Shown here one piece after another: positions 32,952-62,187 of a stretch of DNA of 64,000 nucleotides (its first letter is position 1; every line of letters begins with the position of its first letter). The notes beneath the pieces were generated by a model that worked only from the letters and a program-made list of their open reading frames with translations, did no database searches and was not told the origin of the DNA. The DNA is from Candidatus Babeliales bacterium (lineage in GTDB: Bacteria > Babelota > Babeliae > Babelales > Vermiphilaceae). Position numbers and translations under genes: made by a program. The stretch is from NCBI GenBank assembly GCA_963743635.1, contig CAVUQO010000003.1, forward strand, positions 160,001 through 224,000, in the 5' to 3' direction.

Positions 32952-33698
32952 ATGGCTCGATATAGTGTAAAACACGCAGTACGCGTGATGTTGGTGAGTG
33001 GTAGTATTGCAAGCTCAATGTTTGCAATGGATGGTGGCGTAATGATTCAACGAAGTCCGCAGGAAAGTCCACAGTCTCAGGATGATTCGGGGGCTGCGTC
33101 GCCACATCTTCCGGCAACCTCTCGAATAGCAATGCGTCGCGGTTCTACTATGGGATTGGGGGTCGATTCTCAAAATCTTCGTAGAAGGCTTGCAGATTTA
33201 TCGGTGAAGAGCAGTGAAGGATCTTCTCCAACGGCAAGCCAATCAGCGGTCTATTACACTGAAAGAGATCGCTCTTTATCTGCTCCTGTTGGTCCTATTC
33301 TTTCTAGACTTGTTACTCCTCGATCTTCTACTCATCGGTCAGACAGTCCTCGGTGCGCTACCCCTCAAGGCATACTGCTTTCTTCTATAGGGCACGCGGT
33401 TCATGAAGTTCCTATGAAAAAACGTGAACTGTTGCCAGATGGATCGGAAGTAGAGCGGGTACGTATTTTCCCGGTGAATCAATTTTCATCGAGTAATATG
33501 GCAGGTGAGCTTGATGAGTATGCTACGATTCATTTGTGTGTGAACCCAAAAAACAAAACGTGTACAGTTCTGAAGATTGAGATGCATGATGATTATGTAG
33601 CGGCTGCATTGCCCTCAGACAAACAAGAAGCGTTTAAGCAAGATTTGATCAAAAGAGCTCTTGAGTTAGCAGCGGCAAAGCAAAAAGATTTAGAATAA
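32952..33698 (+). CDS. Exported Ser/Arg/Pro-rich hypothetical protein (candidate effector)
   Basis: GGAGG RBS; signal ending MFA-MDG; low-complexity N-half. Confidence 0.75.
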   Translation: MARYSVKHAVRVMLVSGSIASSMFAMDGGVMIQRSPQESPQSQDDSGAASPHLPATSRIAMRRGSTMGLGVDSQNLRRRLADLSVKSSEGSSPTASQSAVYYTERDRSLSAPVGPILSRLVTPRSSTHRSDSPRCATPQGILLSSIGHAVHEVPMKKRELLPDGSEVERVRIFPVNQFSSSNMAGELDEYATIHLCVNPKNKTCTVLKIEMHDDYVAAALPSDKQEAFKQDLIKRALELAAAKQKDLE

Positions 33699-33873
33699 AA
33701 GGCGCGTGAGCTTGCGGCAGAATCCTTCGCATAATTCTCTCCTTCATCCTAAAAACTATCTGAAAATAATAGCGCTATTTCATACATAACTTAAATCTAT
33801 CCCCTAATTATTGACTTTACTATCGTAGAAACGGTAGAAACAAAATAAGATAAATAATGAGGGGATAGGGCAC

Positions 33874-34623
33874 ATGAAAATCACAAAAAAACATATTCGT
33901 CTGGTCGGTTACGTTGGCCTCTGTGGGGCAACGTATGCGCTGGCAATGTTTATCGGCAATGGTCTTTTTGGTGTGGAGCGTTATGCCCTGCGTGTTGACG
34001 ATCGTATTGTAACGTCCCTCAATGCTGAGCTTGCTGCTCATGTTCAAAACTTCACGTGCGGCCTTCGGGTGAGACCCGATATCAGCGCACAAGAAATTCA
34101 AAAACAGTTCCCATGGATTCAATCCGTTTCATTTCATCGCATTCCAACCAAAGAGATGCGGGTGGCGGTTATTGCGGATGATCCGCAGATAAAAGTAAAT
34201 ACAGGCGTTATTACGCATCATTTGCGAGTGCTTCCGGCGGTCACCTTTACGGTCACTGCGCTTTCTCAAATTCCTACTTTAGAAGTTAAATTTCCTCACG
34301 CTGAGCGACATGAGATTCCTGATTCGTTTGTTCCTCACGCAAAAACATTAACTGATCAGCGATTTTCTGCTTACACCATTACCTGGATTGATGAGTATTG
34401 TGCCCGACTGACTGATGCTGAGCAGCCTCACTTTTCTATTCTTTTTAATGCCTATTCGATACCTGACGAGGCAATGTTTGCACATTGCTTATCAATTAAA
34501 CAACAACTAGAAGAACGTGGATCTTTTGCGGGACGCAACAAGGGAACGCGCTGGGTTGCGGATGTACGATTTGAGCGTCAGGTAATTGTGTTTTCTGAGA
34601 AAGGGGGGATAGCACATGGTTAA
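33874..34623 (+). CDS. Divergent FtsQ/DivIB-like protein
   Basis: N-terminal TM, FPWIQSVS POTRA-like and DVRFERQVIV motifs; overlaps ftsA start. Confidence 0.6.
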   Translation: MKITKKHIRLVGYVGLCGATYALAMFIGNGLFGVERYALRVDDRIVTSLNAELAAHVQNFTCGLRVRPDISAQEIQKQFPWIQSVSFHRIPTKEMRVAVIADDPQIKVNTGVITHHLRVLPAVTFTVTALSQIPTLEVKFPHAERHEIPDSFVPHAKTLTDQRFSAYTITWIDEYCARLTDAEQPHFSILFNAYSIPDEAMFAHCLSIKQQLEERGSFAGRNKGTRWVADVRFERQVIVFSEKGGIAHG

Positions 34624-35852
34624 GATTTATGCAGATCGAGTGAAGGTTTCAATTGATATTGGTACCACAAAAATTTGCGTTATCATTGCGCAGCAATTAG
34701 ATGCTGATCGCATTGAAGTGCTGGGTATGGGAAAGGCGCCATCGCATGGATTGAAAAAAGGGGTGGTTGTCGATATCGCGAAAACTATTCATTCTATCAA
34801 GCGAGCCGTGCAGGAAGCGGAGTTGATGGCGGGCATTAAAGTGGAATCGGCATACATCGGTATTTCCGGCGCGCATATTCATTCGCTTAATTCGCAGGGG
34901 CTTGCGCCGATTAAACATGGCGATGTTCGTGCAGCTGATATTGAGAATGTGCTTGCCTCAGCGCAGGCAATTCCGGTGCCAGAAGGGCAACAAATTTTGC
35001 ACGTTTTGCCACAATATTACATCATCGATGGCCATGAAAAGGTACAAGATCCTTTTGGTATGCATGGCATTCGTCTTGAAGTGGAAGCTCATATTATTTT
35101 GGGTGCTGTTTCTTCTGTACAAAATTTAGTGAAATGTTGTGAATCTGCCGGCGTAAAAGTTGCCGACGTCGTCTTAGAGCAACTTGCATCGGCAGCCGCG
35201 GTACTCAGCGATGACGAGCGTGAGCTTGGCGTTGGGGTTCTTGATATTGGTGGTGGTACTGCCGATCTTGCATTATACCAGCATGGCAGTATTCGACATA
35301 CGATGGTTCTCGCGGTAGCGGGTAATCATTTTACCAATGACATTGCTATTGGATTGCGCACTACGCTTGAAGATGCAGAACGCGTCAAGCGAGAATATGG
35401 ACTTGCGAGCATTAAATTGCTTGAGCATGATGAACCGATTGAGATTGAAATGGTTCAAGGAAATGCGCGTAATACTGTGCAGCGTTCTGAGCTTATTCAC
35501 ATTATTGAGCCTCGTACGCGCGAACTGTTGAGTTTGGTGCATGAAGAGCTTATCAAGCGCAAGTTACTTTCATTTGTGCCTTCCGGAATGGTAATTACCG
35601 GTGGTGGATCATTGCTTAAGGGAATTAAGGAAGTGGCAGAAGAAACTTTCAATATGCCGGTGCGTCATTGGTGTGCCTCGCATAGATTATGATTTGCCTG
35701 AATCGCTTCACAGTCCAATCTATGCAACCGGGTATGGATTACTCGTACATGCGTTGAAAAAAGAAAAGCTGAGTAGTGTGCATGCGGTGGGTGGTCCATT
35801 GTTGCTGCGCATTGCAGAGCGGATGAAATCATGGGTATCAGATTTTTTCTAG
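34616..35852 (+). CDS. ftsA: Cell division protein FtsA (apparent +1 frameshift at ~35667)
   Basis: IDIGTTKI, DIGGGT, ITGGGSLL; removing one C restores PVRIGVP...YATGYGLL...WVSDFF. Confidence 0.95.
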
Positions 35853-35887
35853 AATTGATAACGGAGTATTAAAAAAGGGAGAACGGT

Positions 35888-37218
35888 ATGATAGAATTTA
35901 AAGTAGATGACCAACCAAAACAAAAAGTTTCCATCAAAGTTATTGGTGTGGGTGGTGCTGGCGGTAATGCGGTTAAAAGAATTATCGAATCTGGGTTACA
36001 TGATAGCATTGAATGCATTGTAGTGAATACGGATGCGCAAGCGCTTGAATTATCAATAGTGCCAACCAAGGTGCAAATTGGTGTTAAATCTGCAAAAGGG
36101 TTGGGAACTGGTGCAAATCCTGAGCTCGGTAAACGAGCAGCAGAAGAAGATATGGATAAAATTTTAGAAGCAGTTGGCAGTGCAGATATTGTGTTCTTAG
36201 CTGCAGGTATGGGCGGCGGTACTGGTTCTGGTGCATTACCGGTTATTGCGCATGCATTGCGTGAAAAAGGTATCTTAACCATTGCGATTGTAACCAAGCC
36301 GTTTGTGTTTGAAGGTAAGCGCCGTATGAAAGTTGCGCAAGATGCAACTGAAGTGGTGCGCAAAGAAGTTGATACGCTTATCGTGATGCCAAATCAAAAC
36401 TTACTCAGCGTCGCTGATAAAAATGTTTCTATGATCGATGCATTTGCAATGATCAATGATGTATTGACGCAATCGGTTAAGGGCATTTCAGATATTATCA
36501 CCAATCCTGGTCATATTAACGTTGACTGCGCAGACGTACGCGCAATCATGAAAGATCAAGGTATTGCAGTTATGGGTACTGGTAGAGCAACGGGCGGTGC
36601 AGGGCGTGGCCGTGAAGCTGCATTGCAAGCAACCTCTTCACCATTACTTGAAAACATGACCATTGAAGGTGCGCATAGTGTTCTGTTAATATTACTGGTG
36701 GCCTCAATCTTGGATTGCATGATATTAGTGATGCAGCATCGGTTATTTACGAACAAGCGCATGAAGATGCGAATATCATTCTCGGTTCAGTCATTGATGA
36801 AGCAATGGGCGATGAGATCTCAGTAACTATTATCGCAACCGGTTTTAAACCAAAAGAGAAGAAAGAGCTTGCTGCAAAGGATGATAAAGCGCCAGCGCGT
36901 AATGAACAAGCGCAATCTGAATCAGTGATCCGCGGATCAGTGCTTGATGCGTACGTTGGTTTCCAAGAAGCTCAGGAAGTGCAAAAAATAGAAGCAGCCT
37001 CTGCGCAAGAGATAGCAGAAACAGTTCTTGAAAAAGAGGTGGTGGTGCCAGTGGAGGCAGCTCCGCAGGCAGCAATTTCTTTGGCAACAAAGGAAGCGGT
37101 TAAGGAAGCGGTTGCCGAGTACGCAACGCATGATATTGGCTATGAACGCTCTGAAGCATTACTGGATCTTGATGTGCCTACTTATTTACGCAAACAACAA
37201 CAAGAAGAACAACTGTAA
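35888..37218 (+). CDS. ftsZ: Cell division protein FtsZ (one base missing at ~36688)
   Basis: GVGGAGGNAV, GMGGGTGSG; adding one A restores LLNITGG; C-terminal LDVPTYLRK. Confidence 0.97.
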
Positions 37219-37234
37219 CGTATAATTCCAGACT

Positions 37235-37280
37235 AAAAGCGCACCGCATTGAACTTTCGGTTTAATGCGGTGCTATTTTT
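37235..37280. terminator. Bidirectional terminator
   Basis: GCACCGCATTGAAC-tttcg-GTTTAATGCGGTGC flanked by A/T runs. Confidence 0.85.
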
Positions 37281-37285
37281 ATCGC

Positions 37286-37897
37286 CTATTTCTTTTTCTT
37301 AGCCTTTATCGCCGCCGACTGAGCCACTCTAAAATCATAGAGATGCATTGTAAGGTGCGCATCTTCGCTCGATTTTGGGGTGATTACAACGTATGAGTTT
37401 GGTTGTATGGTCTTTGCATAGGCTGCAGCCTGCAATGTCTCTTTGTGTATGTCGGCTTCGTTTATGAGTTCGGGAAATTCTTCTACTCCCATAATCATAC
37501 CTTTGATTTCTTTATAACTGCCTGTGGCTCCTTTAGAAACTGAAAACTTTGACTTGAGGGGGAGCAGAGGAGTGAGAATACGATTTTTTTGAGCATCCAA
37601 CCCAACAAAAAGCCACCCTCTTGAATCTTTATACGCTTCTATGGGCGTTAATTGTTGCCGTGAGGGGACGATCGAGCTAAGGGTTGCCGCTAAGGAAGTT
37701 TGATTGGAGTTGGTCATAATCGTATTTTTGTGATGCGGAGCTATTTTGACCGATTTTACCGCTTTTTTTTGCGACCCATTCACGCTCAAGAGTGCTTCTT
37801 TGTCGGTTGCATTCATGATATTGAGTTTCATGGTTTTCCCCATAAGTGGCCCCATCCAGAGTCCAGTGATCAGTATGGCGAGTACTTTAGTATTCAT
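37286..37897 (-). CDS. Exported basic hypothetical protein
   Basis: AGGAG RBS, signal peptide, KAKKKK C-terminus. Confidence 0.75.
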   Translation of the reverse strand: MNTKVLAILITGLWMGPLMGKTMKLNIMNATDKEALLSVNGSQKKAVKSVKIAPHHKNTIMTNSNQTSLAATLSSIVPSRQQLTPIEAYKDSRGWLFVGLDAQKNRILTPLLPLKSKFSVSKGATGSYKEIKGMIMGVEEFPELINEADIHKETLQAAAYAKTIQPNSYVVITPKSSEDAHLTMHLYDFRVAQSAAIKAKKKK

Positions 37898-38081
37898 ATA
37901 ATCCTTCTCCTTTTTATAGTCCCTATTTAGCTCGATCGTAGCATATTGATATTTCAGTTTGCAACAATAGTGTGATTTTTGTTTAAAAAGCCGAAGGTTG
38001 CCTATTTTTACATTTGTGCCTTTATGTGCTATTATCAGAGTGATTTGTATTAATTCCTCCTTAATTTTAAAGGATCTTCAT

Positions 38082-38474
38082 ATGATTAAGCACAAAACGA
38101 CCCTGATGGCTTTCCTCATGGCGGCATTTCTAGCCCAACCCCTACAAACTCATGCGGATGCTTCATTTACAAGCAAAATTGTCTCGTCTCTTAATGACAT
38201 TCCAACGTTTATCAAGGTTGGTGGTGCCTTTGCGACTGTTGCCTTAGCAGCTGCTGCATACCGTTATTACATTGCAAAATATGGTCCAACGCAGGCAAAT
38301 GCAGGACAGGCAAATGGCGCAAACCCTACTTTTTTCACCGCCCCTTCTACTGTGACGTCTCCAACTACAACCTTTTCTAAATCTGAACCAAAGCAAGCAG
38401 TTGCGGAAACTCCATATGTTTCGCCATATCAAGCAGGTTTTGATGAATGGATATCAGTCGGGTGCCCAAGCTAA
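38082..38474 (+). CDS. Exported/membrane hypothetical protein
   Basis: LAQPLQ signal peptide followed by a second hydrophobic segment. Confidence 0.7.
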   Translation: MIKHKTTLMAFLMAAFLAQPLQTHADASFTSKIVSSLNDIPTFIKVGGAFATVALAAAAYRYYIAKYGPTQANAGQANGANPTFFTAPSTVTSPTTTFSKSEPKQAVAETPYVSPYQAGFDEWISVGCPS

Positions 38475-38583
38475 AAAAGTAATAATCTAAATATGGGGAG
38501 GTCTTTGGCGAAGTAGAATAAACAGCTATAATTGACGATATGTGTATTAATAGTAAGACCCTAGCTTAAAAAGGGATATTTAT

Positions 38584-39807: not shown

Positions 39808-39818
39808 AGGATTATAGA

Positions 39819-40851: not shown

Positions 40852-41232
40852 ATGAAATTTCACTTTTATAGTGCGCTTATATTGATTTCATCCACGGTTT
40901 ATGCGATGGATGAAGTTAGATCATCGGTGCCATCTAAAAGAGAAAAAAAGGTGAGATTCGATGAGAGTAAAAATAAAGTACATGTGGTAGAGAAAAATAT
41001 TGCTGTTCCTGAGCGCATGACTCGGGCTCAATATATGGAGCATGTGCGCGTTGGGGCTGAGAAATTGGCAGAACAGGAAGCGGCACGTAAGGCTCCTTGT
41101 ATTTTTCAGCTAAGCACGATTCAGGAAGAAGAGAGTCCGGCAACTCCTCAATTGCCTCGAAGAAAAGTGCAAGCATATGATATCGATTCCATGATGGATA
41201 GGATGCAAACGGTAGGTCTTGGTAAAAAGTAA
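40852..41232 (+). CDS. Small exported protein with RVxF and LxxIxE motifs
   Basis: Signal VYA-MDE; KKVRFDE; LSTIQEEE. Confidence 0.75.
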   Translation: MKFHFYSALILISSTVYAMDEVRSSVPSKREKKVRFDESKNKVHVVEKNIAVPERMTRAQYMEHVRVGAEKLAEQEAARKAPCIFQLSTIQEEESPATPQLPRRKVQAYDIDSMMDRMQTVGLGKK

Positions 41233-41234
41233 CT

Positions 41235-42078: not shown

Positions 42079-44640
42079 ATGATCACACGCATTCTTGCAA
42101 AAATTATTGGGACTAATAATGCGCGTCAGTTGCGCAGAATCCAGCCCATTGTGGACAAAATTAACGCATTTGAGCCGGCTATTAGTAGTCTTAATGATGA
42201 ACAGCTTGCCGCCAAAACGATGGAATTTCGTGAGCAGCTCAGTCAGGGCAAAACGCTCGATGATATTTTACCTGAAGCGTTTGCAGTAGTGCGTGAAACC
42301 AGTAAACGAGTTATGGGGCAACGCCATTACGATGTTCAGCTCATTGGCGGTATCGTGCTCCATCAAGGAAAAATTTCTGAAATGAAAACCGGTGAAGGTA
42401 AAACACTCACCGCAACATTGCCACTCTATTTGAACGCACTTGCCGGCAAAGGTGTTCACCTCGTTACGGTCAACGATTATTTGGCACGCCGTGACGCAGA
42501 GTGGATGTCTCCTATTTACAACTTTCTCAAACTTGAAGTAGCAGTCTTACAAAACGATATGCCTGATCATGAACGCAAAAAAGCGTATGCTGCCGATATT
42601 TTATATGCAACGAATAACGAGCTTGGGTTTGATTACCTGCGCGATAATATGAAGTTTCGCTTAGCCGATTATGTGCAGCGGGATCCAGTCTATGCGATCG
42701 TCGATGAAGTTGACTCTATTTTGATTGATGAAGCTCGTACACCATTGATCATTTCAGGAGCTACTGATAAAAGTAGTCGTCTCTATGTTGATGCCAATCA
42801 AGTGGTCAAGCATTTCAAAAAAGATGAAGATTATGTGGTCGATGAAAAAGAACGTTCATCGCAATTTACCGACGTTGCGATCGACAAAATTGAAAAGGCA
42901 TTCAATATCACCAATCTTTATGCCATTGAGCATTTGCCGCTCTTGCATCACGTAACGCAGGCCTTGCGCGCGAATACATTGTATCGCCGTGACGTTGATT
43001 ATGTGGTCAAAGATAAAGAAGTTCTCATCGTAGATGAATTTACTGGACGTATTTTACCAGGGCGCCGCTACAGTGATGGCTTGCATCAGGCGCTAGAAGC
43101 AAAAGAAGGCGTTGAGATTGAGCAAGAAAGTCAGACGCTCGCCTCTATTACTTTACAGAACTATTTCCGTTTATATAAAAAGCTTGCGGGTATGACTGGT
43201 ACTGCAGCAACGGAAGCAGAAGAGTTTTATAAAATTTACAAACTTGACGTTATTTCCATTCCAACCAATAGAGAAATGATTCGCGATGACAAAGCGGATC
43301 TTATATTCCTCACGAGAAATGCAAAATATAAAGCGATCGTAGACGATGTAAAGGCGCGCTATGATAAAGGTCAGCCCGTTCTAATTGGTACCATTGCAAT
43401 TGAAACATCTGAGCTGCTGAGTGCAATTTTGAGCGCTAATGGCATTAAGCATGAAGTGTTGAATGCGAAACAGCATGAACGCGAAGCGGAGATTGTAGAA
43501 AAGGCAGGGCATCCAGGGCATATTACGATTGCAACCAATATGGCGGGCCGTGGTACCGATATTAAACTGCTTCCTCCTTCACGAGAAGCGGGTGGTTTGT
43601 ATATTTTGGGTACAGAGCGGCATGAAAGTCGTCGTATTGATAATCAGTTGCGAGGTCGTTCAGGCCGTCAGGGCGATCCTGGTGAATCACGTTTTTATAT
43701 CTCACTTGAAGACGATTTAATTCGTATTTTCGCGGGAGATACGCTGAAAAAGAAAATGGAATTTTTCGGTATGAAAGAAGACGAGATCATCGAATCACCA
43801 TTCGTATCTAAGACCATTGAGCGTGCGCAAGAAAAGGTTGAAAAACACAACTTTGAAATTCGTCGCCATTTGCTCGAATATGATGACGTGCTTAATCAGC
43901 AGCGTAAAGTTATTTACGATTATCGGCGGTCAATTTTAGAGGGTGAAGATCAAATTTTTGATCTTGTCCGTGATCTAATTGCAAGCGCAGCTTCCGATAT
44001 GATCGCGCATCATTGCCAAAGTCGTACGGTTACGTCAGAAGAATACGAGCAAATTGTTGACGGAGTGCATAAGGTTTCGGGATTGAGCCCTGAAGTGGTA
44101 CGTGCTGCCGGCTTTAATACTCAGAATGTTGAACTGCTCAAGCAAGATGTCACTAATTTCTTAATCGATCAGTATGCGCTCTTTAGAGAACAGCATGACG
44201 ATAAAATAATTCAAGACGCTGAAAAATGGCTCATGCTTGAAATTATCGATCAAGCGTGGAAACAGCATATGTTAAACCTCGATCATTTGAAAGAGGGCAT
44301 CGGATTGCGTGGTTGGGGTCAGAAAACGCCACTTATCGAATATAAGAAAGAAGCGTTTGCAATGTTCCAGGATATGATGGAATTTGTGCGCCGTGATATT
44401 GTGCATCATATTTTCCATCTGAAGCTTGAACGATTCAATCAGCATGAATTGGAACGTAAGCGCGAGCAAGAGCTTGATCAGTTGAACATGAGTGGCCCTG
44501 AAGATAGTGGCAATTATTTAAACGATTCAAGCGGCAAAGTCGTGGTCAAACAAGTTCGTCATGAAGATAAAGTTGGGCGTAATGAACCATGCGCATGTGG
44601 TTCTGGCAAGAAATCTAAAAAATGCTGTGCAAGTAAATAA
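42079..44640 (+). CDS. secA: Preprotein translocase ATPase SecA
   Basis: EMKTGEGKT, DEVDSILIDEARTPLIISG, QLRGRSGRQGDPG, C-terminal SEC-C motif. Confidence 0.99.
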   Translation: MITRILAKIIGTNNARQLRRIQPIVDKINAFEPAISSLNDEQLAAKTMEFREQLSQGKTLDDILPEAFAVVRETSKRVMGQRHYDVQLIGGIVLHQGKISEMKTGEGKTLTATLPLYLNALAGKGVHLVTVNDYLARRDAEWMSPIYNFLKLEVAVLQNDMPDHERKKAYAADILYATNNELGFDYLRDNMKFRLADYVQRDPVYAIVDEVDSILIDEARTPLIISGATDKSSRLYVDANQVVKHFKKDEDYVVDEKERSSQFTDVAIDKIEKAFNITNLYAIEHLPLLHHVTQALRANTLYRRDVDYVVKDKEVLIVDEFTGRILPGRRYSDGLHQALEAKEGVEIEQESQTLASITLQNYFRLYKKLAGMTGTAATEAEEFYKIYKLDVISIPTNREMIRDDKADLIFLTRNAKYKAIVDDVKARYDKGQPVLIGTIAIETSELLSAILSANGIKHEVLNAKQHEREAEIVEKAGHPGHITIATNMAGRGTDIKLLPPSREAGGLYILGTERHESRRIDNQLRGRSGRQGDPGESRFYISLEDDLIRIFAGDTLKKKMEFFGMKEDEIIESPFVSKTIERAQEKVEKHNFEIRRHLLEYDDVLNQQRKVIYDYRRSILEGEDQIFDLVRDLIASAASDMIAHHCQSRTVTSEEYEQIVDGVHKVSGLSPEVVRAAGFNTQNVELLKQDVTNFLIDQYALFREQHDDKIIQDAEKWLMLEIIDQAWKQHMLNLDHLKEGIGLRGWGQKTPLIEYKKEAFAMFQDMMEFVRRDIVHHIFHLKLERFNQHELERKREQELDQLNMSGPEDSGNYLNDSSGKVVVKQVRHEDKVGRNEPCACGSGKKSKKCCASK

Positions 44641-45310: not shown

Positions 45311-45838
45311 TTAAAGAGGCTCTTCTTTATTTTCTTTGAACAGATGTTTCGCCATGAGACGCTCTAGCTCATCGATTATGTCTTGTTCAAGTCGCTCTTC
45401 TTCCAATTCTTGCTCAATTATTTGTGCATTGTGCAGAGCATTTGCTTGGTCTATGATTGCTTGCTTTTGCCGCTGAGATGGATTATTAATAAGGACTCGA
45501 CTTCGTTCTCCCAACCCACGCTGTTTTAATGCTTGCGCGCCTGCTTTGTTGAGTTCTTTTGTCTTTCCACTTCTTCCTTCTGCAGGAATTTCGCGTACTT
45601 CTGGCGCCTCTTCACTAAATTTTATCTTAGTTTGACGTGTTGGCTCGTTTTGTATTGGCGCTTGTGCTGATACCGCTTCTTGCTGCGTCGATACCGGACC
45701 AGCTGCTGGGATTACTGATTCTGCCCCTTCTGGGCTTAATCGGAGCGTCTTTTGAAGGTCGTCTTCCTGTTCCATGGCCAAGGTCGCTTGACTGAGGCAC
45801 ATTAATGCTACCATGACTACTTGTTTTAAATTTTTCAT
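45311..45838 (-). CDS. Exported hypothetical protein with RVxF-type motif
   Basis: Signal TLA-MEQ; TKIKFSEEAPEVREI. Confidence 0.8.
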   Translation of the reverse strand: MKNLKQVVMVALMCLSQATLAMEQEDDLQKTLRLSPEGAESVIPAAGPVSTQQEAVSAQAPIQNEPTRQTKIKFSEEAPEVREIPAEGRSGKTKELNKAGAQALKQRGLGERSRVLINNPSQRQKQAIIDQANALHNAQIIEQELEEERLEQDIIDELERLMAKHLFKENKEEPL

Positions 45839-46244: not shown

Positions 46245-46967
46245 TTACTTTAAGAACATTGAAGAAGATTGGCCGCCCTCATTTCTTCTGATGCGCTCTA
46301 GTTCTTGTGCGACTCTTTCTTTTTCTTTCTTGTCGATTGCGATACGGTCTTCCTCTGATGTTATCTGTCTTCCCGGTGAATAGATCTCGCAATAAGCTGT
46401 TATTGGATCTGTTCCTAGATCTTCTTGTTCTTCGCGTCGATCAAAATCTATGTTCTGTTCGAGCGCTTTATTCATGGCTTCAAGTTCCGATTGAGACAGC
46501 TTATTAGGGCGTGCTTCTGTGTTGCTGCTTCCTGGTAGAGCAAATCGTACTTTCTTCTTTGTAGTGGGTTCAGATTTTTTGATCCATTGAGCAATGTTAG
46601 AGCGTATCTCATTGATTTCTTCGGGTAAATAGTGCGCCCTTTGAGTTTGAGCAGAAGAATCATCCTTTGCTGGAGGTAAATTTATAATCATTGTTGCAGC
46701 TACTAAAGGTGCTGGTGATGGGGCTGCTGGCAGAGATGGCGTTGGTCTGCTAGCTGAGCTGAGTATTTGTGCGAACACTGAAGGGTGTGGAACGCCTGAT
46801 GAATCAGAAAATGTACGTGTTGGTTCTTGTACCAATGCTTGGGCTTCTCTTTTTGCTTGTTCTGATTTTTTCCATTTTTCTAGCGCTTTCTCGCTCATCG
46901 CCTCTATTGGTAGGTTGTAGAGCGTGAGTGCGAGCACTGCAAATGTTATTATTTTGAATATTTTCAT
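46245..46967 (-). CDS. Exported Pro-rich hypothetical protein with RVxF motif
   Basis: GGAGG RBS; IEA-MSE; KKKVRFAL. Confidence 0.8.
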   Translation of the reverse strand: MKIFKIITFAVLALTLYNLPIEAMSEKALEKWKKSEQAKREAQALVQEPTRTFSDSSGVPHPSVFAQILSSASRPTPSLPAAPSPAPLVAATMIINLPPAKDDSSAQTQRAHYLPEEINEIRSNIAQWIKKSEPTTKKKVRFALPGSSNTEARPNKLSQSELEAMNKALEQNIDFDRREEQEDLGTDPITAYCEIYSPGRQITSEEDRIAIDKKEKERVAQELERIRRNEGGQSSSMFLK

Positions 46968-55346: not shown

Positions 55347-55726
55347 CCCTTCGCCACAATTTTTATTTTTATCCTTCGGACAAAAATAAAAATCACTCAG
55401 GGCGAACGGAACAGGGTGTGTGAAACAAATTTAAACTTTAGGTTCCTAAGATAATCCCAATTTAGTACCCCCGTAACGAAGAACCAAAAATCTCTCGATC
55501 GTCTTTGCGACGACGAAATACGACATCCGCTGTAAAGCGGTGTTGTATGAGGACGATCAGTGACTTACATTTAGTCCGCATTGATTAAAATTGTTAGATT
55601 TTCAGGGTTCTCTAAATTTGGTTAACAGAGTCTAGTAAAAACTTTTTTGTTAATCCTATTCTCCCGTTCGCCCTGAGTGATTTTTATTTTTGTCCGAAGG
55701 ATAAAAATAAAAATTGTGGCGAAGGG
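55347..55726. mobile_element. Perfect 63-bp inverted REP-like arms around a 254-bp structured spacer
   Basis: 55347-55409 is the exact reverse complement of 55664-55726. Confidence 0.85.
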
Positions 55727-55742
55727 CAACTTAAAGTGCGTA

Positions 55743-56774
55743 TTACCGAGCAATGCCACCAGGCATTGTTTGGAGTTGTTGAATATTTTTTTCAACCGCG
55801 CGTAACGATTTTTCTGCTGCTTGCAAGCGCAGTTTAAGGAGCGCGGTGTGTTGTTCTGCTTTATGTGCATGCGCTTCAAGGTTTTGTATTATTTTTTCGG
55901 TTTCATCGAGCCGATTGCGATTGAATTTGTTTGAAACGGTATTGAAGGTATCGACGCATTGCGCAAGATTAGCGGCTTCAGCATCTTTTTGGTTGGTCTT
56001 CTGTTCTCCTTGGCTTAACGTTTCATTAAATTTGGCGAGCGAGGCCGGAAATGTTTCTACGCGCGCATGCGATGCATTAAGTTGCTCTTGGCGTTCTTGG
56101 TTGAGTGCAGCAAGAGTGGCACGCTGTTCTGCAAGTGTACGGTTCATTTCATTTTTGATTTCTTGCGTTTGTAGTGCAACGCGTTCAAGCATATTTTCTG
56201 CATCATGGGCATATGCGATCAGCGATTGAAGGGATTCTTGCGCAATTAAATCGACCTGAGCATTGCGTTTTGTTTCTCGTGTATCAAAAAGCTTGCCTTT
56301 TCTCAATGCCGACTCAAAACGTGCTTGATAGCGGTTGAGTTCTCTTGGGTTGTATGAAGCAATAGTTTGCAGGCTAAATTCCGCCTCATGGAGAAGATCG
56401 GAAATAGGTCGGGCAGTTTTGTATGTTGGCGCTGAAAGATCTTCTATGAGCGCGTTAAAATGACGTATTTCATCGCGATATGCTTGCTTATGATGTTTTT
56501 GCTCCAGGGCAAGATATTCGCGATCTAAGGCATCTTGTTTTTTATCAACTGCTTCTTGTGCTTTGCGCTTTCGTTCGAGTCTGCTTCTGGCGGTAACTTT
56601 TTTTGCATGAGCCACCCATCGCTGAGCCTGTGCTTGTTCGCATCGCTTTCGACGCTCAACTTTATCTTGTACTTCTAAAGTTCTTTTTTCTTTTTCTTTG
56701 TCCGTTTGTGCCGATGCATTTGGCATTTCCACGATACATAGACCAACTATGACAATAACGGTATATAGTTTCAT
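55743..56774 (-). CDS. Exported coiled-coil hypothetical protein
   Basis: GAGGGG RBS, signal ending ASA-Q, helical charged composition. Confidence 0.8.
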   Translation of the reverse strand: MKLYTVIVIVGLCIVEMPNASAQTDKEKEKRTLEVQDKVERRKRCEQAQAQRWVAHAKKVTARSRLERKRKAQEAVDKKQDALDREYLALEQKHHKQAYRDEIRHFNALIEDLSAPTYKTARPISDLLHEAEFSLQTIASYNPRELNRYQARFESALRKGKLFDTRETKRNAQVDLIAQESLQSLIAYAHDAENMLERVALQTQEIKNEMNRTLAEQRATLAALNQERQEQLNASHARVETFPASLAKFNETLSQGEQKTNQKDAEAANLAQCVDTFNTVSNKFNRNRLDETEKIIQNLEAHAHKAEQHTALLKLRLQAAEKSLRAVEKNIQQLQTMPGGIAR

Positions 56775-56923
56775 ACGTTCCCCTCTCTTTTTTGAGTCCC
56801 TTAATTCTGTCTATTATTATTTCATATTGTATTTTAAATATGCAATAATAATTGTTTTACGCGATTTATTGCGCGCATACTAAATACTTTATAGACCAGT
56901 AAGGTTTTTGGGAAATGCTTGTG

Positions 56924-57589
56924 CTATGCGCCAAATACGATGACGAGTTGATCCCTAAAAAGATAGAAGAAGAAGATTGCAAAAAGCACTCCATCAAAGC
57001 GATCGAGAAAGCCGCCGTGTCCCGGCAGTAGTGATCCTGCATCTTTTAATTTGGCGCGGCGTTTGAGCCACGATTCAAAAAGATCTCCCGCTAATGCAAT
57101 GACGCTCGTAATGAACGTTACACCCGCGATCGTGAGCCATGAGCTGTGCGGTTTGCCGTGGCAGAGTATTACAACGCCTATAGTTAGAAAGGCGGCAATA
57201 TATCCTCCAAAGAAACCTTCCCATGATTTGGCCGGGCTGATAGAGGGAGCAATTTTATGTTTGCCATAGGGCGCACCTATCATAAAAGATCCGCTATCAT
57301 GGCTCGACACCAAAACAAACATAAAGAAAAGGAGGTGGCGATAAGCCTCATCGTGACTGACGTTCAATGCAAAAAGTAGGGCAAATGGAAGGAGAGGATA
57401 AAAAGGAGTGATGAGCCAAAAGGGAAGTTTGTGTATATCGAAAAACTTTGGCCATTCAAGAAGCATGATAATGGTTAATATGCTCGCGAGAATGAGAGTA
57501 AATACTATGGGAGGCAAATATATGATGGAAATCCAGAAGACAATGCCGAGTACCGTACTTGTTATGCTTCGTTTCGTTAGTTCTTTCAT
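56924..57589 (-). CDS. cdsA: Phosphatidate cytidylyltransferase
   Basis: ISPAKSWEG, GDLFESWLKR...KD.G.LLPGHGGFLDRFD. Confidence 0.95.
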   Translation of the reverse strand: MKELTKRSITSTVLGIVFWISIIYLPPIVFTLILASILTIIMLLEWPKFFDIHKLPFWLITPFYPLLPFALLFALNVSHDEAYRHLLFFMFVLVSSHDSGSFMIGAPYGKHKIAPSISPAKSWEGFFGGYIAAFLTIGVVILCHGKPHSSWLTIAGVTFITSVIALAGDLFESWLKRRAKLKDAGSLLPGHGGFLDRFDGVLFAIFFFYLFRDQLVIVFGA

Positions 57590-57593
57590 CGAA

Positions 57594-57956
57594 TTATTCC
57601 TCTTGTGTAAACGCATTCGGTATGTAGGTGAGTGTTTGGTATGGAGGGATCCCAATCAGGAGCGCTGCATCGAAGCGCCAAACATAGTCTATCAAATCGT
57701 ATTCTGCTACATACGCCATTGCAGTTGCAATAATTTTTCGTTGTTGCGCGTGAGATATTAGATTTTCTGGTTCGATATAGGTGCCGCTGCGTGTTTTTAC
57801 TTCAACAAATACAATCTCGTTATCTTTTTCTGCTATCAAATCGATTTCGCCATACGGCTTTCTGTAATTGCGGCCACGGATCACATAACCTTCTTTTTCA
57901 AGATTGCATGCGACCAGATTTTCTCCTTCAGTGCCGAAGATTTTTTTTACAGTCAT
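57594..57956 (-). CDS. yraN: YraN family protein
   Basis: G.EGE, RNYR...GEIDLIA...FVEVKTR, RFD. Confidence 0.92.
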   Translation of the reverse strand: MTVKKIFGTEGENLVACNLEKEGYVIRGRNYRKPYGEIDLIAEKDNEIVFVEVKTRSGTYIEPENLISHAQQRKIIATAMAYVAEYDLIDYVWRFDAALLIGIPPYQTLTYIPNAFTQEE

Positions 57957-57960
57957 GCTC

Positions 57961-58968
57961 TTAGAATCGATCGACATTTTTTTTCTTTGGTTGCTTGGTA
58001 ATCTCAGCCTGCGCAAGTCTTGTTTTTTGATAATCAGGGAACCGTTCAGCCAAGTCTTTGCGCCTTAGTTCAAGGAGCGGCATATCTTTTACCTGCTGAG
58101 CGAGCTCAATTTCAAGAGTGATCAAGTATGGATCGCAGGTAGGAATGAGATCGATAAATTCCTTACGAATATTGGTGAGTCGGGTACGCGCTGATTTATA
58201 CCGTCCGCGACTGCAGTAAAAATTGAATATGCCGATTTCATTTTCAAATAATCGCTGATAACACTGCTCGCGCATATGGCGAACTTCTTTTGAGTGAGTG
58301 CTGAAAATTTCTTCTCGTTCAAGGAACTTACTCGCAAGTTCGATCGCTTCGCGTGTATTACTTTGATCTCGTTCGGCATCAAGAATAATGTAGAATTTGC
58401 AGACTACTGCCTTATACAGTGCATATTCAACTTTTTCGTTGCCTGGGTAATATTTCACAAATTCACGATACATTTTGCCGGCGGCTTCTAATTTGCCGTC
58501 ATCAAAAAGTAAGTCGGCAAGCTCGAGGAGAATGCCCTTTAATTTCTCAAGATCGGTACAGATAGGCACCATGCGCTCTAAGGTTCTGATTGCATTATAA
58601 CGATCGTTCGATGCGAGGCATTTTTCTTTGAAGGCATTCAGCTCAGCATAGTTCATGTTGCGCAGAGTTTTCTTTTGATTCTTTGGATCGAACCATTTAT
58701 CTATTTTGGTGCGTAAGCGCCCCTTTTTTTTCTGAGGCTTGAGATTGGCCTTCTCTGATTCAGGCTGCGTTGTTTCCTCAGCTTTGGTCACCTTGAGCGC
58801 CCGGGCGGTGCTGGTTTTGAAGGAATCGAGCGTTGCATCAAGCGGGTTCTGCTGTTGAGCCCCCCCGGTCGAGATGCTATAGCTATCAAGATTTGCATTA
58901 GAAAGGAATGTTGTAGTTACGGCAATGATGATGGTACAATACCAAAAGTGCCACCGGTTTTGTTTCAT
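57961..58968 (-). CDS. bamD: Outer membrane protein assembly factor BamD-like TPR protein
   Basis: YREFVKYYPGNEKVEYALY, ERDQSNTREA, E..I..FY...G.Y.SA..R. Confidence 0.85.
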   Translation of the reverse strand: MKQNRWHFWYCTIIIAVTTTFLSNANLDSYSISTGGAQQQNPLDATLDSFKTSTARALKVTKAEETTQPESEKANLKPQKKKGRLRTKIDKWFDPKNQKKTLRNMNYAELNAFKEKCLASNDRYNAIRTLERMVPICTDLEKLKGILLELADLLFDDGKLEAAGKMYREFVKYYPGNEKVEYALYKAVVCKFYIILDAERDQSNTREAIELASKFLEREEIFSTHSKEVRHMREQCYQRLFENEIGIFNFYCSRGRYKSARTRLTNIRKEFIDLIPTCDPYLITLEIELAQQVKDMPLLELRRKDLAERFPDYQKTRLAQAEITKQPKKKNVDRF

Positions 58969-59153
58969 ATCGTACCCTATGAGTTATCCAAAAAGGTATT
59001 AAAAATCGTATCTTTTTCTTTTTTTAGACTACTATAATTCGGAAGAAAAGCAACGTGAGGCAGGCGGGTACGGTTGCCGAGAGCCTCTGAAGATGTAATA
59101 CTAAAGTGCAATAAGTCGATAACCAAGCTATCAAGCGGATGTGGGGTATCATA

Positions 59154-60859
59154 ATGAGAAAAAATATTCTTGAATTAATCCTGGAGTCAGGAGCGGTAAA
59201 CACGCAGCAGATGGCTGAATGCCAGAAGGCAGTGGAGGGGACAAGTCAACGGATTCAAGACTGTCTTATTGAGAAGAAATTCATGACCCCTGAGGCGCTT
59301 GCGCAGATTTATGCCAAATATGCCTCTCTTGATTATATAACCCACGTTACCGACCAAATGGCAGATTTAGCTGTTTTGGCGCGTGTTCCTATGTCCTTTT
59401 TGCGTGAAAACGTGGTCATGCCCGTTACCATCAATGGCCAAACGCATATTCTGACAGCCAATCCACTCAATTTTCAACCCATAGATGATTTGAATCTGTT
59501 GCTCGGCGGGGGCATTCGCCCCGTAGTTGCAACACCCAAGGCCATTCTTGATGGTATCAATAAATATTATCCGCTTGAAGGCGCCAAGCAGATGATCGAA
59601 GAGCTAGAGGAGGAACAGGAAGGGCTTGGTGACGTTGAACTCGCAGACATTGAAGAGCGAGACATAGTGGCCATGGCCGCCGAGGCTCCGATTATCAAAC
59701 TCGTGAATCATATCCTGTATCAGGCAGCAAAACGAGAAGCTTCAGATATCCATATAGAGCCGTTTGAGAAAGAAGTGGCGTGCGATATCGAATTGATGGC
59801 GTTATGTATAGTGTTATGAATCCGCCCAAACGAATTCAAGGTGCCTTGATTTCACGTATAAAAATTATGGCCCATATGAATATTGCTGAAAAACGGATTC
59901 CGCAAGATGGTCGTATCGATTTACGTATTGCAGATAAAGCGATCGATATTCGTGTATCAATGCTGCCTGTTGCTTTTGGAGAACGGATTGTAATGCGTCT
60001 TTTAGATAAATCACGCACATTTGGTCAAATCGATCAAATGGGATTCAGTGAACGAGATCTTCGGGTATTAAAAGAAAGTATCGCACGGCCCAACGGAATT
60101 ATTTACGTAACGGGTCCAACCGGTTCGGGTAAAACCACTACGCTTTATTCGATTCTTGGAAAATTAAATACCCCGGACGTAAATATCATTACCGTTGAAG
60201 ATCCGGTTGAATATCAGATGGCAGGTATCGGACAAGTACAAGTGAGCGATAAAATTGGCTTGACGTTTGCTGCTGCGCTGCGTTCTATTTTGCGTCAAGA
60301 TCCTGATATTATCATGATCGGTGAAACTCGTGATCAGGAAACCGCCCAAATTGCGATTCAAGCATCACTTACTGGTCACTTTGTACTCAGTACTTTGCAT
60401 ACTAATAGTGCGGCAGCTACCATTACTCGATTGCTTGATATGGGCGTTGAGCCATATCTTATTGCATCATCGGTAGTTCTCGTGATGGCGCAGCGGTTGG
60501 TGCGTAAACTATGTGATAATTGCAAAAAGCCTTATAAGCCTTCTGTAGATGTTTTGCGCAGTATCGGATTAAGTGAAAAAGATGCTCAAGGTATTACTTT
60601 TTATGAGCCTGTAGGTTGCGAAGAATGTCTGCGTATGGGATATAAAGGTCGCCTCGCAGTTTATGAATTGATGCAGATGACCACTGAAATTGCAAAATTG
60701 ACCATAGAACGTGCTGATACCGCGCGTCTGCGTAATCAAGCAGTTGCCGATGGCATGACGCTTTTAATTCAAGATGGTTTACGCAAGATTAAAGAAGGTC
60801 TTACTACTATCGATGAAGTGCTCTCCGTTGCATCAATGGAAATTGGTGAAGTCGAGTAG
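59154..60859 (+). CDS. GspE/PilB-family secretion/pilus assembly ATPase (apparent frameshift ~59777)
   Basis: ASDIHIEP / [28 protein letters not shown], CxxC zinc motifs. Confidence 0.93.
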
Positions 60860-60862
60860 AGG

Positions 60863-61552
60863 CTAGCTGTTATTATTGTTGTTGCTTTCGGAAGAAATCC
60901 TTTTCTTGCACCAATTCATTTTGTGATCAGTAAGGTAATATTTATCGGAGTATTTCTTTCCGCACTGCGGGCATGCGAATTTTTTATCAAGGTAACGCGT
61001 GTGAGATGCATGAGTGATATGGCGATGAAAAGACCTTTTTATTTCATACTTTTGATTGCATCCTTCAATGGGTGCCCAATAGCTTTTGCCATTAACGATA
61101 GTTGGTTCGGCTCGATTTTCCTTGATTTGGCCTTGCATTGCTAGAGTTGCCGCGATTGGAGTAATGAGGGGGTGCGTGGCTGGCGCAACTGCAGGGTATT
61201 TTGTTGTAGGGGTATTATGCACAGCGTTATCTTGGTTCAAAAGATAGCGAGGTATGAGTGAATCTATGTCTACTGGAGGCCAAGATTTTTTTACAATTAC
61301 CTCCTTTAGCGTTCCGTCGTCCGATGATATGAAGTGTATGTAATCATTCCGATAAGTTACGCACGGATTATTCAACTCGCGGTGATCCTCAATCTGTTTA
61401 TATTGTTTATATGTGTTGTCGTTTTCCTCTATCTTCTCATTTTCAAAAAAATCTTCAGACAAGAATCGTTGGTAAAAATCATCATCATTTTGCATAGCAT
61501 AACCAGTTGCGCAATTGAGTAAGATTGTGATTGCTGCGATTAAGTATTTCAC
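60863..61552 (-). CDS. Exported C2H2-type zinc-finger protein
   Basis: GTG start; signal GYA-MQN; degenerate finger (APIEGC...H...H) and FACPQCGKKYSDKYYLTDH. Confidence 0.75.
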   Translation of the reverse strand: MKYLIAAITILLNCATGYAMQNDDDFYQRFLSEDFFENEKIEENDNTYKQYKQIEDHRELNNPCVTYRNDYIHFISSDDGTLKEVIVKKSWPPVDIDSLIPRYLLNQDNAVHNTPTTKYPAVAPATHPLITPIAATLAMQGQIKENRAEPTIVNGKSYWAPIEGCNQKYEIKRSFHRHITHASHTRYLDKKFACPQCGKKYSDKYYLTDHKMNWCKKRISSESNNNNNS

Positions 61553-61674
61553 GCATGGCCCTTTAGAATACGTATTTTGAGACATACATTATCTCATAAG
61601 AGAATGTAACATCTATCGATTTATTGCAATAAAGGATCTAAGATTTCGTAATCTTGATGATCGCATTAGGTACT

Positions 61675-62187
61675 CTATTCTTGCAGTAGGTGCTTTTTAA
61701 CTACGTGGTTACGGAGCGCTTGAAACTCACTAAATAAAATCGAGCATGTATTGCATCTAGATGTTCCGGATGGGGGCATCTTGTGGCAATTTAGAAGATG
61801 GGGACGGACATTATTTCTGTGAGTAGTCTTGCAAGTAGGGCATTCTGTAAACGTTGCTGGAATTGTAATAGGAGCTGGTTGCTGATTTTCTGCAACAGTT
61901 TTTACAGATGTCGTATTTGATTTGTTTTGGACTTCAAGGCATTGTTTTTTGGCATCTCCAGCCATAGCTGCTATTGCGGGAGCAGTCTCTAAAGATGTTT
62001 TCTCATTTACGCTATCGTTTTTTGCGCTTTGCTGGGCGGTTCCGTGTGCTGCTTGAGTTATTGCGCGAGAAAGAAGAAATAAAGGGTTTTCCTCTTCCGC
62101 AGGTCTTTTGCCGTTTGCATTCATAGCAAAACTTGCTTGTGAGGTTGATAGAGCGATACATAAAAATATAAGAGATAGATTTTTCAT
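61675..62187 (-). CDS. Exported protein with two C2H2-like fingers
   Basis: Signal SFA-MNA; CPTC...H...CH; CNTC...F...L..H....H. Confidence 0.8.
   Translation of the reverse strand: MKNLSLIFLCIALSTSQASFAMNANGKRPAEEENPLFLLSRAITQAAHGTAQQSAKNDSVNEKTSLETAPAIAAMAGDAKKQCLEVQNKSNTTSVKTVAENQQPAPITIPATFTECPTCKTTHRNNVRPHLLNCHKMPPSGTSRCNTCSILFSEFQALRNHVVKKHLLQE

Follow-up and report, generated by a model that had tools for sequence, protein, structure and literature searches.

A methionine directly after the predicted signal-peptide cleavage site recurs in many secreted proteins of a Babeliales genome and in several related genera

The 64,000-nucleotide stretch analyzed in the present work (the window; positions 160,001 to 224,000 of contig CAVUQO010000003.1, assembly GCA_963743635.1, Candidatus Babeliales bacterium) encodes a set of proteins with N-terminal signal peptides whose predicted cleavage would expose a new methionine as the first residue (+1) of the mature protein. 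Six such proteins were named in the original prediction, made from the sequence alone, and all six open reading frames (ORFs) exist, and in each the signal peptide ends in an Ala codon directly before an ATG (Table 1). Every one of these N-termini consists of a charged n-region, a hydrophobic stretch, and a short c-region that closes in Ala and is followed by ATG. A Shine-Dalgarno-like word is recognizable before the first start codon in four of the six (32952, 45838, 46967, and 62187; genes are denoted by the position of this codon), and GGGAGGA precedes the ATG at 32952. The six proteins are indeed unrelated, as their mature parts show no pairwise blastp match with an E value below 0.1. A Pfam search at E<=0.1 returned weak C2H2 zinc-finger matches for two of them and nothing else, with no family for the 32952 protein. 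Mature residues 1-27 of the 46967 protein are similar to one paralogue, and a search of this protein against 5.8 billion proteins gave itself as the sole match. The reported Met-Asp, Met-Glu, Met-Asn, or Met-Gln starts, typical of substrates of the N-terminal acetyltransferase (NAT) NatB, are found in five of the six, whereas the 46967 protein starts with Met-Ser. A 619-residue multi-C2H2 protein that extends past the window end represents a seventh clear case, absent from the initial list.

The contrast drawn with other secreted proteins of the window holds as well: in the signal-peptide-bearing immunoglobulin-like, glycosyl-/methyltransferase-like, and large surface proteins, the +1 residue is V, I, N, S, H, or Q. 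The fibre noted earlier for its LHA-MI junction is a fibre-like surface protein; a hydrophobic second mature residue (+2) and paralogues without the Met mark it as a probable chance case. The window also codes for FtsA, FtsZ, and HisRS. The gene at 33874-34623 (+), located just upstream of ftsA in the FtsQ position and without a Pfam match, reads ALA-MF after a membrane anchor and is a false positive with a hydrophobic +2. The GspE/PilB-type ATPase gene is split into two overlapping ORFs, an MshEN part and a T2SSE part, by a frameshift placed by eye at about 59790-59800, and could be a pseudogene or an assembly error.

Table 1. Window features bearing on the exposed methionine (in junctions, the hyphen marks the predicted cut; aa, amino acids)
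Feature	Coordinates	Strand	Details
Secreted ORFan, 248 aa	32952..33698	+	Signal peptide 32952-33026; +1 Met codon 33027-33029 (MFA-MD)
Secreted ORFan, 126 aa	40852..41232	+	Signal peptide 40852-40905; +1 Met codon 40906-40908 (VYA-MD)
Secreted ORFan, 175 aa	45311..45838	-	Signal peptide 45838-45776; +1 Met codon 45775-45773 (TLA-ME)
Secreted ORFan, 240 aa	46245..46967	-	Signal peptide 46967-46899; +1 Met codon 46898-46896 (IEA-MS)
Secreted protein, 240 aa, weak C2H2 zinc-finger match	60863..61585	-	Signal peptide 61585-61496; +1 Met codon 61495-61493 (GYA-MQ)
Secreted protein, 170 aa, weak C2H2-like C-terminus	61675..62187	-	Signal peptide 62187-62125; +1 Met codon 62124-62122 (SFA-MN)
Multi-C2H2 zinc-finger protein, 619 aa	62471..64000	-	Start at 64330, past window end; N-terminus VFA-MDQ
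Fibre-like surface protein	18612..20168	-	LHA-MI; +2 hydrophobic
SecA, motor of the first export step	42079..44640	+	
GspE/PilB-type ATPase	59139..60859	+	Frameshift gives two ORFs, 59139-59819 and 59780-60859

The window belongs to a genome (designated G000) of 1,454,283 bp in three contigs, with a GC content of 40-42% and a completeness of 85%. By SecA, it is closest to metagenome-assembled genomes (MAGs) labelled Babeliales or Dependentiae, at 72-74% identity, followed by Dependentiae bacterium Noda2021 at 71% and a Vermiphilus pyriformis MAG at 69%, which places the organism in Dependentiae, a phylum of protist parasites. A codon-usage log-odds caller yielded 1509 genes, and signal peptides were scored not by SignalP but by our own crude heuristic, which uses n-region charge, the hydrophobic core, and the (-3,-1) rule and is blind to the +1 residue, Pro excepted. 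At the 551 top-scoring sites of signal-peptide-like N-termini genome-wide, Met is the commonest +1 residue (112), ahead of Ser (49), Leu (47), Gly (40), and Ala (38), against a background of 2.0% Met and 9.1% Ala at residues 41-140 of the same proteins. The share of +1 Met is steady at 18-22% across all score thresholds tried (128/643 to 12/54). When any (-3,-1)-compatible junction at the expected place is accepted, Met follows it in 180 proteins and Ala in 138. Because the -3 condition wrongly left out WD40 proteins ending in WRMGA-M, it was dropped, which gave 206 carriers of the [A/S/G]-Met junction and 345 non-carriers among the 551; in 130 of the 206 carriers the junction continues as Met-[D/E/Q/N]. 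Setting aside proteins with further membrane segments leaves 193 soluble carriers and 234 non-carriers.

Carriers account for about 13% of the called genes and are spread over the whole genome. The genome-wide enrichment that was to be checked is thus present, and the picture first drawn from six cases stands for these cases, although it missed both the scale of the phenomenon (about 13% of genes, several genera) and the modular gene structure described below. The +1 Met observation is real, much larger than first noted, and apparently undescribed. No mention of such a rule was found in our literature searches or in the consulted passages of Dependentiae genome papers, none of which comments on the residue that follows the cleavage site; in these portions, the words 'methionine' and 'cleavage' are absent from PMC6561590 and 'cleavage site' is absent from PMC4378268.

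Several observations bear on whether the junction is a signal peptidase I site. With no rule imposed, the frequency of Met peaks at 11-12% six to seven residues past the hydrophobic core and falls to about 2% beyond this peak. Likewise with no rule imposed, A, S, or G stands before a Met at residues 16-36 in 265/483 cases among signal-peptide-like proteins versus 140/563 elsewhere. Both the preference and the peak are predicted by cleavage directly before Met. Among the 180 junctions, the -1 residue is A in 125, S in 31, and G in 24, and the -3 residue is L, A, V, I, or S in 158, counts that partly reflect the selection rule; the consensus reads [LAVI]-x-[AGS]-M-[DEQN], with the cut before M. 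The features of type I signal peptides (charged n-region, h-region, small residues at -3 and -1) are recognized by eye in all six window proteins and by our heuristic genome-wide. A lipobox with Cys at +1 is absent from the six junctions, where +1 is Met, and LPGC in a single carrier genome-wide marks that protein as a lipoprotein and thus a false positive. None of the six matches the prepilin family PF07963 (short leader cut at G-F(M), Glu at +5, N_methyl motif), and the single carrier matching it genome-wide is again a false positive. The twin-arginine (Tat) motif is absent from the n-regions of the six, and the phytoplasma SVM family (PF12113) was returned neither for the six (E<=0.1) nor for 170 carriers (E<=1e-5). 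By every feature that can be tested on sequence, the carriers are ordinary type-I signal-peptide proteins; what is new is the rule on the next two residues.

Two objections had been attached to the original prediction, that cleavage might be predicted elsewhere and that the Met might be the true start codon. With regard to the former, the outcome is divided: Ala-Met is the top-scoring site of the heuristic only in the 40852 protein, whereas in the 32952, 45838, 61585, and 62187 proteins the top site lies 2-5 residues upstream (three in the 45838 protein), and Glu at -2 kept the 46967 protein from being scored as signal-peptide-like. The latter is not borne out. Of 180 carriers, 111 have a Shine-Dalgarno-like motif before the first ATG and five have one before the +1 ATG, and the control, the cleavage codons of non-carriers, gives 7/439; on these counts, an internal start codon at the +1 Met was rejected. 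A DNA-level junction motif was rejected too, since the Ala(-1) codons (GCA 51, GCG 37, GCC 19, GCT 18) follow genome usage.

The second mature residue is as characteristic as the first. The +2 position is occupied by D, E, Q, or N in 63% of carriers versus 26% at positions +3 to +30 of the same proteins, and versus 22% at the second codon of 351 cytosolic genes whose ATG has Shine-Dalgarno support, which bears out the expected enrichment. The +2 spectrum thus differs from that of the second codons of this genome, and the Met-X pair is unlike an ordinary start. In the 193 soluble carriers, the commonest +2 residues are D (37), E (36), Q (35), N (19), S (16), A (9), and H (8), and Met-[D/E/N/Q] accounts for 127 junctions. 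Other classes are depleted relative to composition: hydrophobic residues are found in 19 (10% vs about 30%), small residues in 37 (19% vs about 34-40%), and K or R in 3 (1.6% vs about 11%).

Pfam families were assigned at E<=1e-5 to 170 of the first 180 carriers, the 10 that straddle locus borders being dropped; a family was found in 46 carriers and none in 124. The assigned families include WD40 or other beta-propellers (10 carriers), GNAT (7), Sel1/DUF5092 (4), C2H2 (3), RING or RING-IBR (3, one with ankyrin repeats), Lactonase/NHL/fn3 (3), DnaJ (2), a double-AAA ATPase, a P-loop NTPase with weak AAA/NACHT-type matches, and M49, M48, M15, PLD-like, thioredoxin, and YadA-head proteins (one each). 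The number of WD40 carriers rises to 18 when eight WD40 proteins first scored as non-carriers are counted. Types that need cytosolic cofactors are thus represented by the double-AAA ATPase, the P-loop NTPase, the seven GNATs, three RING/IBR, two DnaJ, and three C2H2 proteins, and the 18 WD40 proteins. Evident false positives or envelope proteins among the carriers are TamB, a pilin, a rotamase with a lipobox, NamZ, two membrane proteins, and the FtsQ-like anchor. For comparison, 91 long non-carriers were examined at E<=1e-8: 17, all membrane transporters or inner-membrane proteins, have a first helix that passes for a signal peptide, six belong to the envelope (secretin, binding protein, DegP-like protease, beta-lactamase-fold, TolB-like, and SpoIID), and eight are the WD40 proteins that proved to be carriers on closer look. 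Carriers are enriched for eukaryote-like and ORFan proteins, and recognizable envelope proteins mostly lack the Met. The proposed tie to eukaryote-like proteins is thus supported; the association is strong but not exclusive.

The seven signal-peptide-bearing, +1 Met GNATs are encoded at L147:8223-8861, L167:9337-10032 and 10057-10509, and L172:1535-2113, 2118-2606, 3292-3942, and 6635-7279 (L numbers denote analyzed loci), and six of them sit in two small arrays. Secretion of these acetyl-CoA-dependent enzymes implies a cytosol-like destination. A role of the GNAT carriers as N-terminal acetyltransferases was considered and dropped, one protein having weak generic GNAT/SpeG-like structure matches and another none. 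The double-AAA ATPase with a signal peptide is located at G000:C3:586978-589359 (L183:6978-9362), and a RING-IBR (RBR-type) ubiquitin-ligase-like protein at C2:273006-274298 (L137:13006-14301); RBR-type homologues with unrelated signal peptides were found in 9 of 40 other genomes of the family, in several of them in multiple copies. A basic-Val/Ile-basic-Phe stretch resembling RVxF, a motif for docking to protein phosphatase PP1, occurs in three of the six window proteins (40852-41232, 45311-45838, and 46245-46967). The RVxF-like motif K[VI][RK]F was rejected as a carrier feature, as it is unenriched genome-wide (3/193 carriers vs 1/234 non-carriers).

The carriers do not descend from a single expanded family. 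Their mature parts fall into 124 carrier-only clusters and 13 mixed ones, and after protein similarity was joined with 5' DNA similarity, 110 of the 127 components with a carrier were still purely of carriers. These numbers rule out one paralogue expansion, and one spreading cassette cannot explain the rule either. Homologues in the samples from relatives were detected for 9/178 carriers versus 61/340 non-carriers (WD40 cluster left out). The carriers are clustered on the genome, with 59 adjacent pairs versus 28 +/- 4.5 expected and a maximum of 44 in 2000 shuffles. Within the WD40 cluster, the Met is kept in 28 of 33 members, diverged pairs of which are mostly no more than 15% identical at positions -8 to -2 and from +3 onward. 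At the orthologue level, the 100-kb samples from relatives contained no carrier-to-carrier pairs, and carrier matches there were nearly all to WD40 repeats.

To map the trait, relatives were run through the same pipeline, with about 100 kb sampled per genome (about 65 kb for G023), and the share of signal-peptide-like N-termini with the strict motif [AGS]-M[DEQN] was tabulated. It amounts to 132/554 (24%) in the whole G000 genome and, in the same family, to 13/37 in G010, 14/43 in G017, 5/20 in G002, 6/25 in G014, 6/33 in G013, and 4/23 in G009. The values are 17-35% in seven of the eight same-family genomes sampled versus 0-12% in other families, where G056 has 5/41 and G023 has 1/15. For 72 non-Dependentiae SecA loci, the strict motif was found in 3/176 (2%) and +1 Met at the top site in 4/176. 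The rule is common to several genera but is not phylum-wide. Identity of SecA was tried as a relatedness proxy for mapping the trait and was uninformative, as all values were 65-73%. The SecA matches of the single-contig relatives G013 (G013:C1:1037189-1039736; 46 in-frame stops in the longest) and G010 (G010:C1:829527-832094; 11 and 2 in two matches) are full of stops, which suggests indel-rich assemblies whose ORF counts may be underestimates.

The 5' ends of the carrier genes show a modular structure. An all-against-all blastn comparison of the regions from -200 nt to 240 nt past the junction gave 231 gene pairs that have the upstream region and signal peptide in common. Counted from the first base of the Met codon, the DNA similarity breaks off after 3-14 nt in 85/146 carrier-carrier pairs and, among carrier pairs with unrelated mature parts, after 3-8 nt in 29/50, whereas 0/40 non-carrier pairs stop at that boundary. 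For example, the G000:C2 genes starting at 551922 (-) and 554693 (-) agree at 97-100% of positions between -150 nt and the ATG, past which identity drops to the random level. As the similarity often stops just past the Met codon, the upstream region, the signal peptide, and the Met behave as one homogenized export module placed before unrelated payloads. Within the window, the genes at 45838 and 46967 are the ones whose 5' ends are affected by this mosaic structure.

With respect to export, the genome encodes SecA and has two tandem S26 signal peptidase genes (C3:523091-523945 and C3:524117-524866), one of which has an insertion that splits the Pfam match. From this gene content, we infer Sec export and cleavage by one of the two S26 peptidases. 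The second peptidase was rejected as a dedicated reader of the mark, since copy number, two in several relatives, does not track the trait: G017, second in its share of the mark (33%), has a single match. Among further secretion genes are two secretins, two GspF-type genes, a GspE-type ATPase, a pseudopilin, and a TolC-like gene, whereas VirB4 and FHIPEP were not found in this 85%-complete genome. Further release is possibly achieved by a type II or pilus-like apparatus. The two secretin genes lie about 5 kb apart (G000:C3:63572-64048 and C3:68298-68780), and two or three secretin matches were obtained in all 31 Dependentiae genomes searched. The consulted parts of earlier papers report two gspD copies in all TM6 genomes studied (PMC4776705), type II secretion as the only system detected in Babela, with signal peptides in 79 of 126 ankyrin proteins (PMC4378268), and signal peptides in 44% of the coding sequences of Chromulinavorax, enriched for ORFans and ankyrin proteins (PMC6561590). 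The GspE/PilB ATPase of the window, cited in the original prediction as support for a second export step because of its adjacency, carries no weight in this respect, since the mark occurs on about 200 genes genome-wide and the gene itself is frameshifted.

Four alternatives to a function of the Met in the host were weighed. It is next to impossible in our estimate that the pattern is chance or an artefact of the gene caller or the signal-peptide heuristic: both programs are home-made and false positives such as the FtsQ-like anchor, the pilin, the lipobox protein, TamB, and the two membrane proteins are clear, yet the same pipeline finds almost no such junctions outside Dependentiae and few in its other families, the enrichment persists at all score thresholds, and the pattern is evident by eye in N-terminus listings. 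Dual initiation, in which the ATG after the signal peptide would be a second start that yields a leaderless cytoplasmic isoform, is highly improbable. The codon is always ATG, albeit by definition, and as only 175 of 508 long genes have a Shine-Dalgarno-like motif at their longest start, initiation without this motif may be common in this genome. However, the motif is no more frequent before the +1 ATG than before the cleavage codons of non-carriers and is frequent before the first ATG, the Ala, Ser, or Gly before the Met and the -3 pattern are features of signal peptidase sites rather than of initiation, and cytoplasmic copies of some 200 host-type proteins would have no evident use.

The modular gene structure invites the idea of an evolutionary by-product, in which the Met is the retained start of payload ORFs grafted behind promoter and signal-peptide modules, or a passenger of these modules, and has no function. 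The similarity boundary at the Met codon, absent from non-carrier pairs, the gene pair with near-identity up to the ATG and none beyond, and the youth and clustering of the carriers all speak for it. We nevertheless regard it as unlikely, since the +2 residues differ from the second codons of the genome, the Met is placed exactly after the (-3,-1) site rather than scattered near it, it is kept in most WD40 paralogues despite divergence of the signal peptides, and it is present in no fewer than 110 lineages whose modules are unrelated and, across several genera, on proteins of different kinds that are likewise unrelated. The usage of Ala(-1) codons reveals no DNA-level junction motif, and homologous exchange between modules gives a sharp boundary without making new junctions. 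Equally doubtful is the sorting mark of the original prediction, by which the Met-[DEQN] end would be read in the periplasm by type II or pilus-like machinery or by vesicle loading and would separate released from resident proteins. Its absence from resident envelope proteins and presence on ORFan and eukaryote-like proteins agree with such a role, as do the secretin, GspF-type, GspE-type, and pseudopilin genes in a genome without detected VirB4 or FHIPEP and the inclusion of the Met in a conserved export module. On the other hand, typical exoenzyme types (two metallophosphoesterases, a lysophospholipase, a C11 peptidase) lack the mark, and secretins are universal in the Dependentiae searched while most families lack it, so that no machinery co-varies with the mark; nor do signal peptidase paralogue counts, and the depletion of small and hydrophobic +2 residues would have no obvious reason. 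To our knowledge, neither a linear N-terminal signal nor any other sequence motif defines type II secretion substrates, which pass through the periplasm as intermediates and leave by a GspD secretin.

The reading that we rank first, a serious possibility held with reservation, is that Met-[DEQN] acts on the host side as an N-terminal cap that would escape both the N-degron pathways and methionine aminopeptidase (MetAP) of the host. According to the accessible part of PMC11735805, N-degrons comprise unacetylated G/A/S/T/C, basic, bulky hydrophobic, and D/E/N/Q N-termini; Asp, Glu, Asn, Gln, and Cys N-termini are converted to Arg/N-degrons, some Met-hydrophobic N-termini are also N-degrons, MetAP takes off Met only before small residues, and signal peptidase products are named as a source of N-degrons. 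A Glu N-terminus of BiP made by signal peptidase is arginylated in the cytosol (PMC8037982, seen in part). Under these N-degron and MetAP rules, a Sec-cleaved protein would have few safe N-termini in a eukaryotic cytosol, for instance Met with a +2 residue outside the small and hydrophobic classes. As basic residues just after the cut are also disfavored in Sec export, Met-[D/E/N/Q/H] remains, as in the observed +2 spectrum. This fit, an argument from consistency, is the reason for the ranking, and host mimicry or a stabilizing Met, which had been offered beside the sorting mark, seems to fit the +2 statistics better than the latter.

On this host-side proposal, a subgroup of the Vermiphilus-related Dependentiae would follow the +1 Met as a lineage-specific, selected rule in its Sec export module. 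Proteins that evolve fast and are directed to the host would be made with a type-I signal peptide ending in [L/A/V/I]-x-[A/S/G] and followed by Met and usually by D, E, Q, or N. The precursor would be exported by SecA/SecYEG and cut before the Met by signal peptidase I, as gene content and the (-3,-1) pattern suggest, so that the mature protein would start with a free Met-[D/E/Q/N]. In the host cytosol, this would be about the sole class of free N-termini read by neither the Arg/N-degron nor the GASTC/N-degron pathways; it would be left untrimmed by MetAP, would be free of the basic residues that hamper Sec export, and would resemble a native NatB-class N-terminus. The Met would belong to a conserved 5' module (upstream region, signal peptide, and Met) with unrelated payloads behind it.

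A number of observations weigh against this proposal. Effector-like proteins are also found among the non-carriers, namely five Sel1 proteins, one ankyrin and one leucine-rich repeat protein, two metallophosphoesterases, a lysophospholipase, and a C11 peptidase. Conservation is incomplete: the Met is retained, by eye, in about 7 of 13 signal-peptide-bearing RBR homologues, and the five M49 peptidase orthologues mostly lack it. In two genera, the junction of RBR homologues is Ala-Val-[K/H] rather than Ala-Met (L228 and L237 in G002, L229 in G003), which speaks against strict conservation; Val is outside the N-degron residues listed in the available text of PMC11735805. The strict motif is weak or absent in Dependentiae that likewise secrete many eukaryote-like proteins, with 0/32 in G037 of the same family, 2/37 in the Noda2021 isolate, 1/23 in the V. 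pyriformis MAG, and, in other families, 2/35 in G028 and 0/18 in each of G030 and G021. The Dependentiae lineages without the mark have a flat +1 spectrum with no other 'safe' residue preferred. For about 94 of the 206 carriers, the heuristic puts the top site 2-5 residues upstream of Ala-Met, so the cleavage position of any single protein is taken from the genome-wide pattern, and the mature N-termini are themselves predicted from sequence by this heuristic. Finally, the N-degron pathways of the protist host are assumed by analogy with yeast and mammals, and entry of the carriers into the host cytosol is presupposed.

In its most far-reaching form, which we consider conceivable but doubtful, the Ala-Met-[D/E/Q/N] junction would be a bacterial host-targeting code: a one-residue cap built into a portable promoter and signal-peptide module would label the whole set of host-cytosol effectors (about 130-200 proteins, about a tenth of the proteome), so that they are treated as native by the N-degron, MetAP, and N-acetylation systems. 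If this is true, the effectors of an uncultured clade of protist parasites are readable straight from sequence, and the cleavage sites of bacterial signal peptides are shaped by the N-terminal quality control of the host. As parasites of protists, Dependentiae are widespread but almost uncultured, and they have hundreds of Sec-dependent eukaryote-like proteins that have to be sorted and to survive in the host. Should the rule hold, it would provide (i) a sequence-only listing of host-directed proteins, most of them ORFans, (ii) a testable link between bacterial cleavage sites and eukaryotic N-degrons, MetAP, and NatB, and (iii) an example of modular effector genes composed of an export module and interchangeable payloads.

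Several known systems resemble parts of this picture. In the lipoprotein +2 rule and the lipoprotein export signal of Bacteroidota, residues after the cleavage site set the destination of the protein; those signals follow a lipid-modified Cys at +1 and depend on signal peptidase II, whereas here +1 is Met and there is no lipobox. N-end-rule control has reportedly been described for the secreted Listeria proteins LLO and ActA in the host cytosol. There, a residue exposed by signal peptidase is reported to set stability in a eukaryotic cytosol, as proposed here; however, these are single proteins in which a destabilizing residue limits toxicity, whereas a proteome-wide non-degron N-terminus is proposed for the carriers. 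The full specificity of NatB covers Met-Asp, Met-Glu, Met-Asn, and Met-Gln, with which the Met-[D/E/Q/N] majority of carriers (130/206) would start. As far as the text available of PMC11735805 goes, one Met-Gln protein is acetylated by NatB, and the major NATs, including NatB, act on nascent chains at the ribosome. Unlike such substrates, the proteins considered here would be delivered post-translationally, and their acetylation is putative.

Host-targeting motifs grouped with the Plasmodium export element (PEXEL) further include TEXEL and the oomycete RxLR motif. In PEXEL, as here, an export signal is cut in the secretory pathway, and a new N-terminus with E, Q, or D near the cut, which Plasmodium proteins require to be exported into the host, marks a large, fast-evolving effector set (10.1101/2023.07.12.548774 and PMC3567231, in the parts consulted). 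PEXEL is eukaryotic, its RxLxE/Q/D motif, located downstream of an endoplasmic reticulum (ER) signal sequence, being cut by plasmepsin V in the ER and the new end N-acetylated, whereas the carriers have a bacterial signal peptidase site followed by Met, with no dedicated protease or translocon identified, so the likeness is functional only; the PEXEL motif itself is not seen at these junctions, which follow the [LAVI]-x-[AGS]-M-[DEQN] consensus in a bacterium without an ER. The phytoplasma sequence-variable mosaic (SVM) proteins (PF12113; SAP11, SAP54) are Sec-only effectors of a reduced parasite in which a conserved signal module precedes variable mature parts, as here, and the portion available of the paper describing them makes no mention of a +1 Met rule (PMC8026896). 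Unlike SVM, the signal peptides in the present genome are diverse (at least 110 lineages), and their common feature is one residue after the cut. By these analogies, PEXEL is nearest in working principle, phytoplasma SVM nearest in gene architecture, and the lipoprotein +2 rule together with the N-end-rule control in Listeria nearest in logic.

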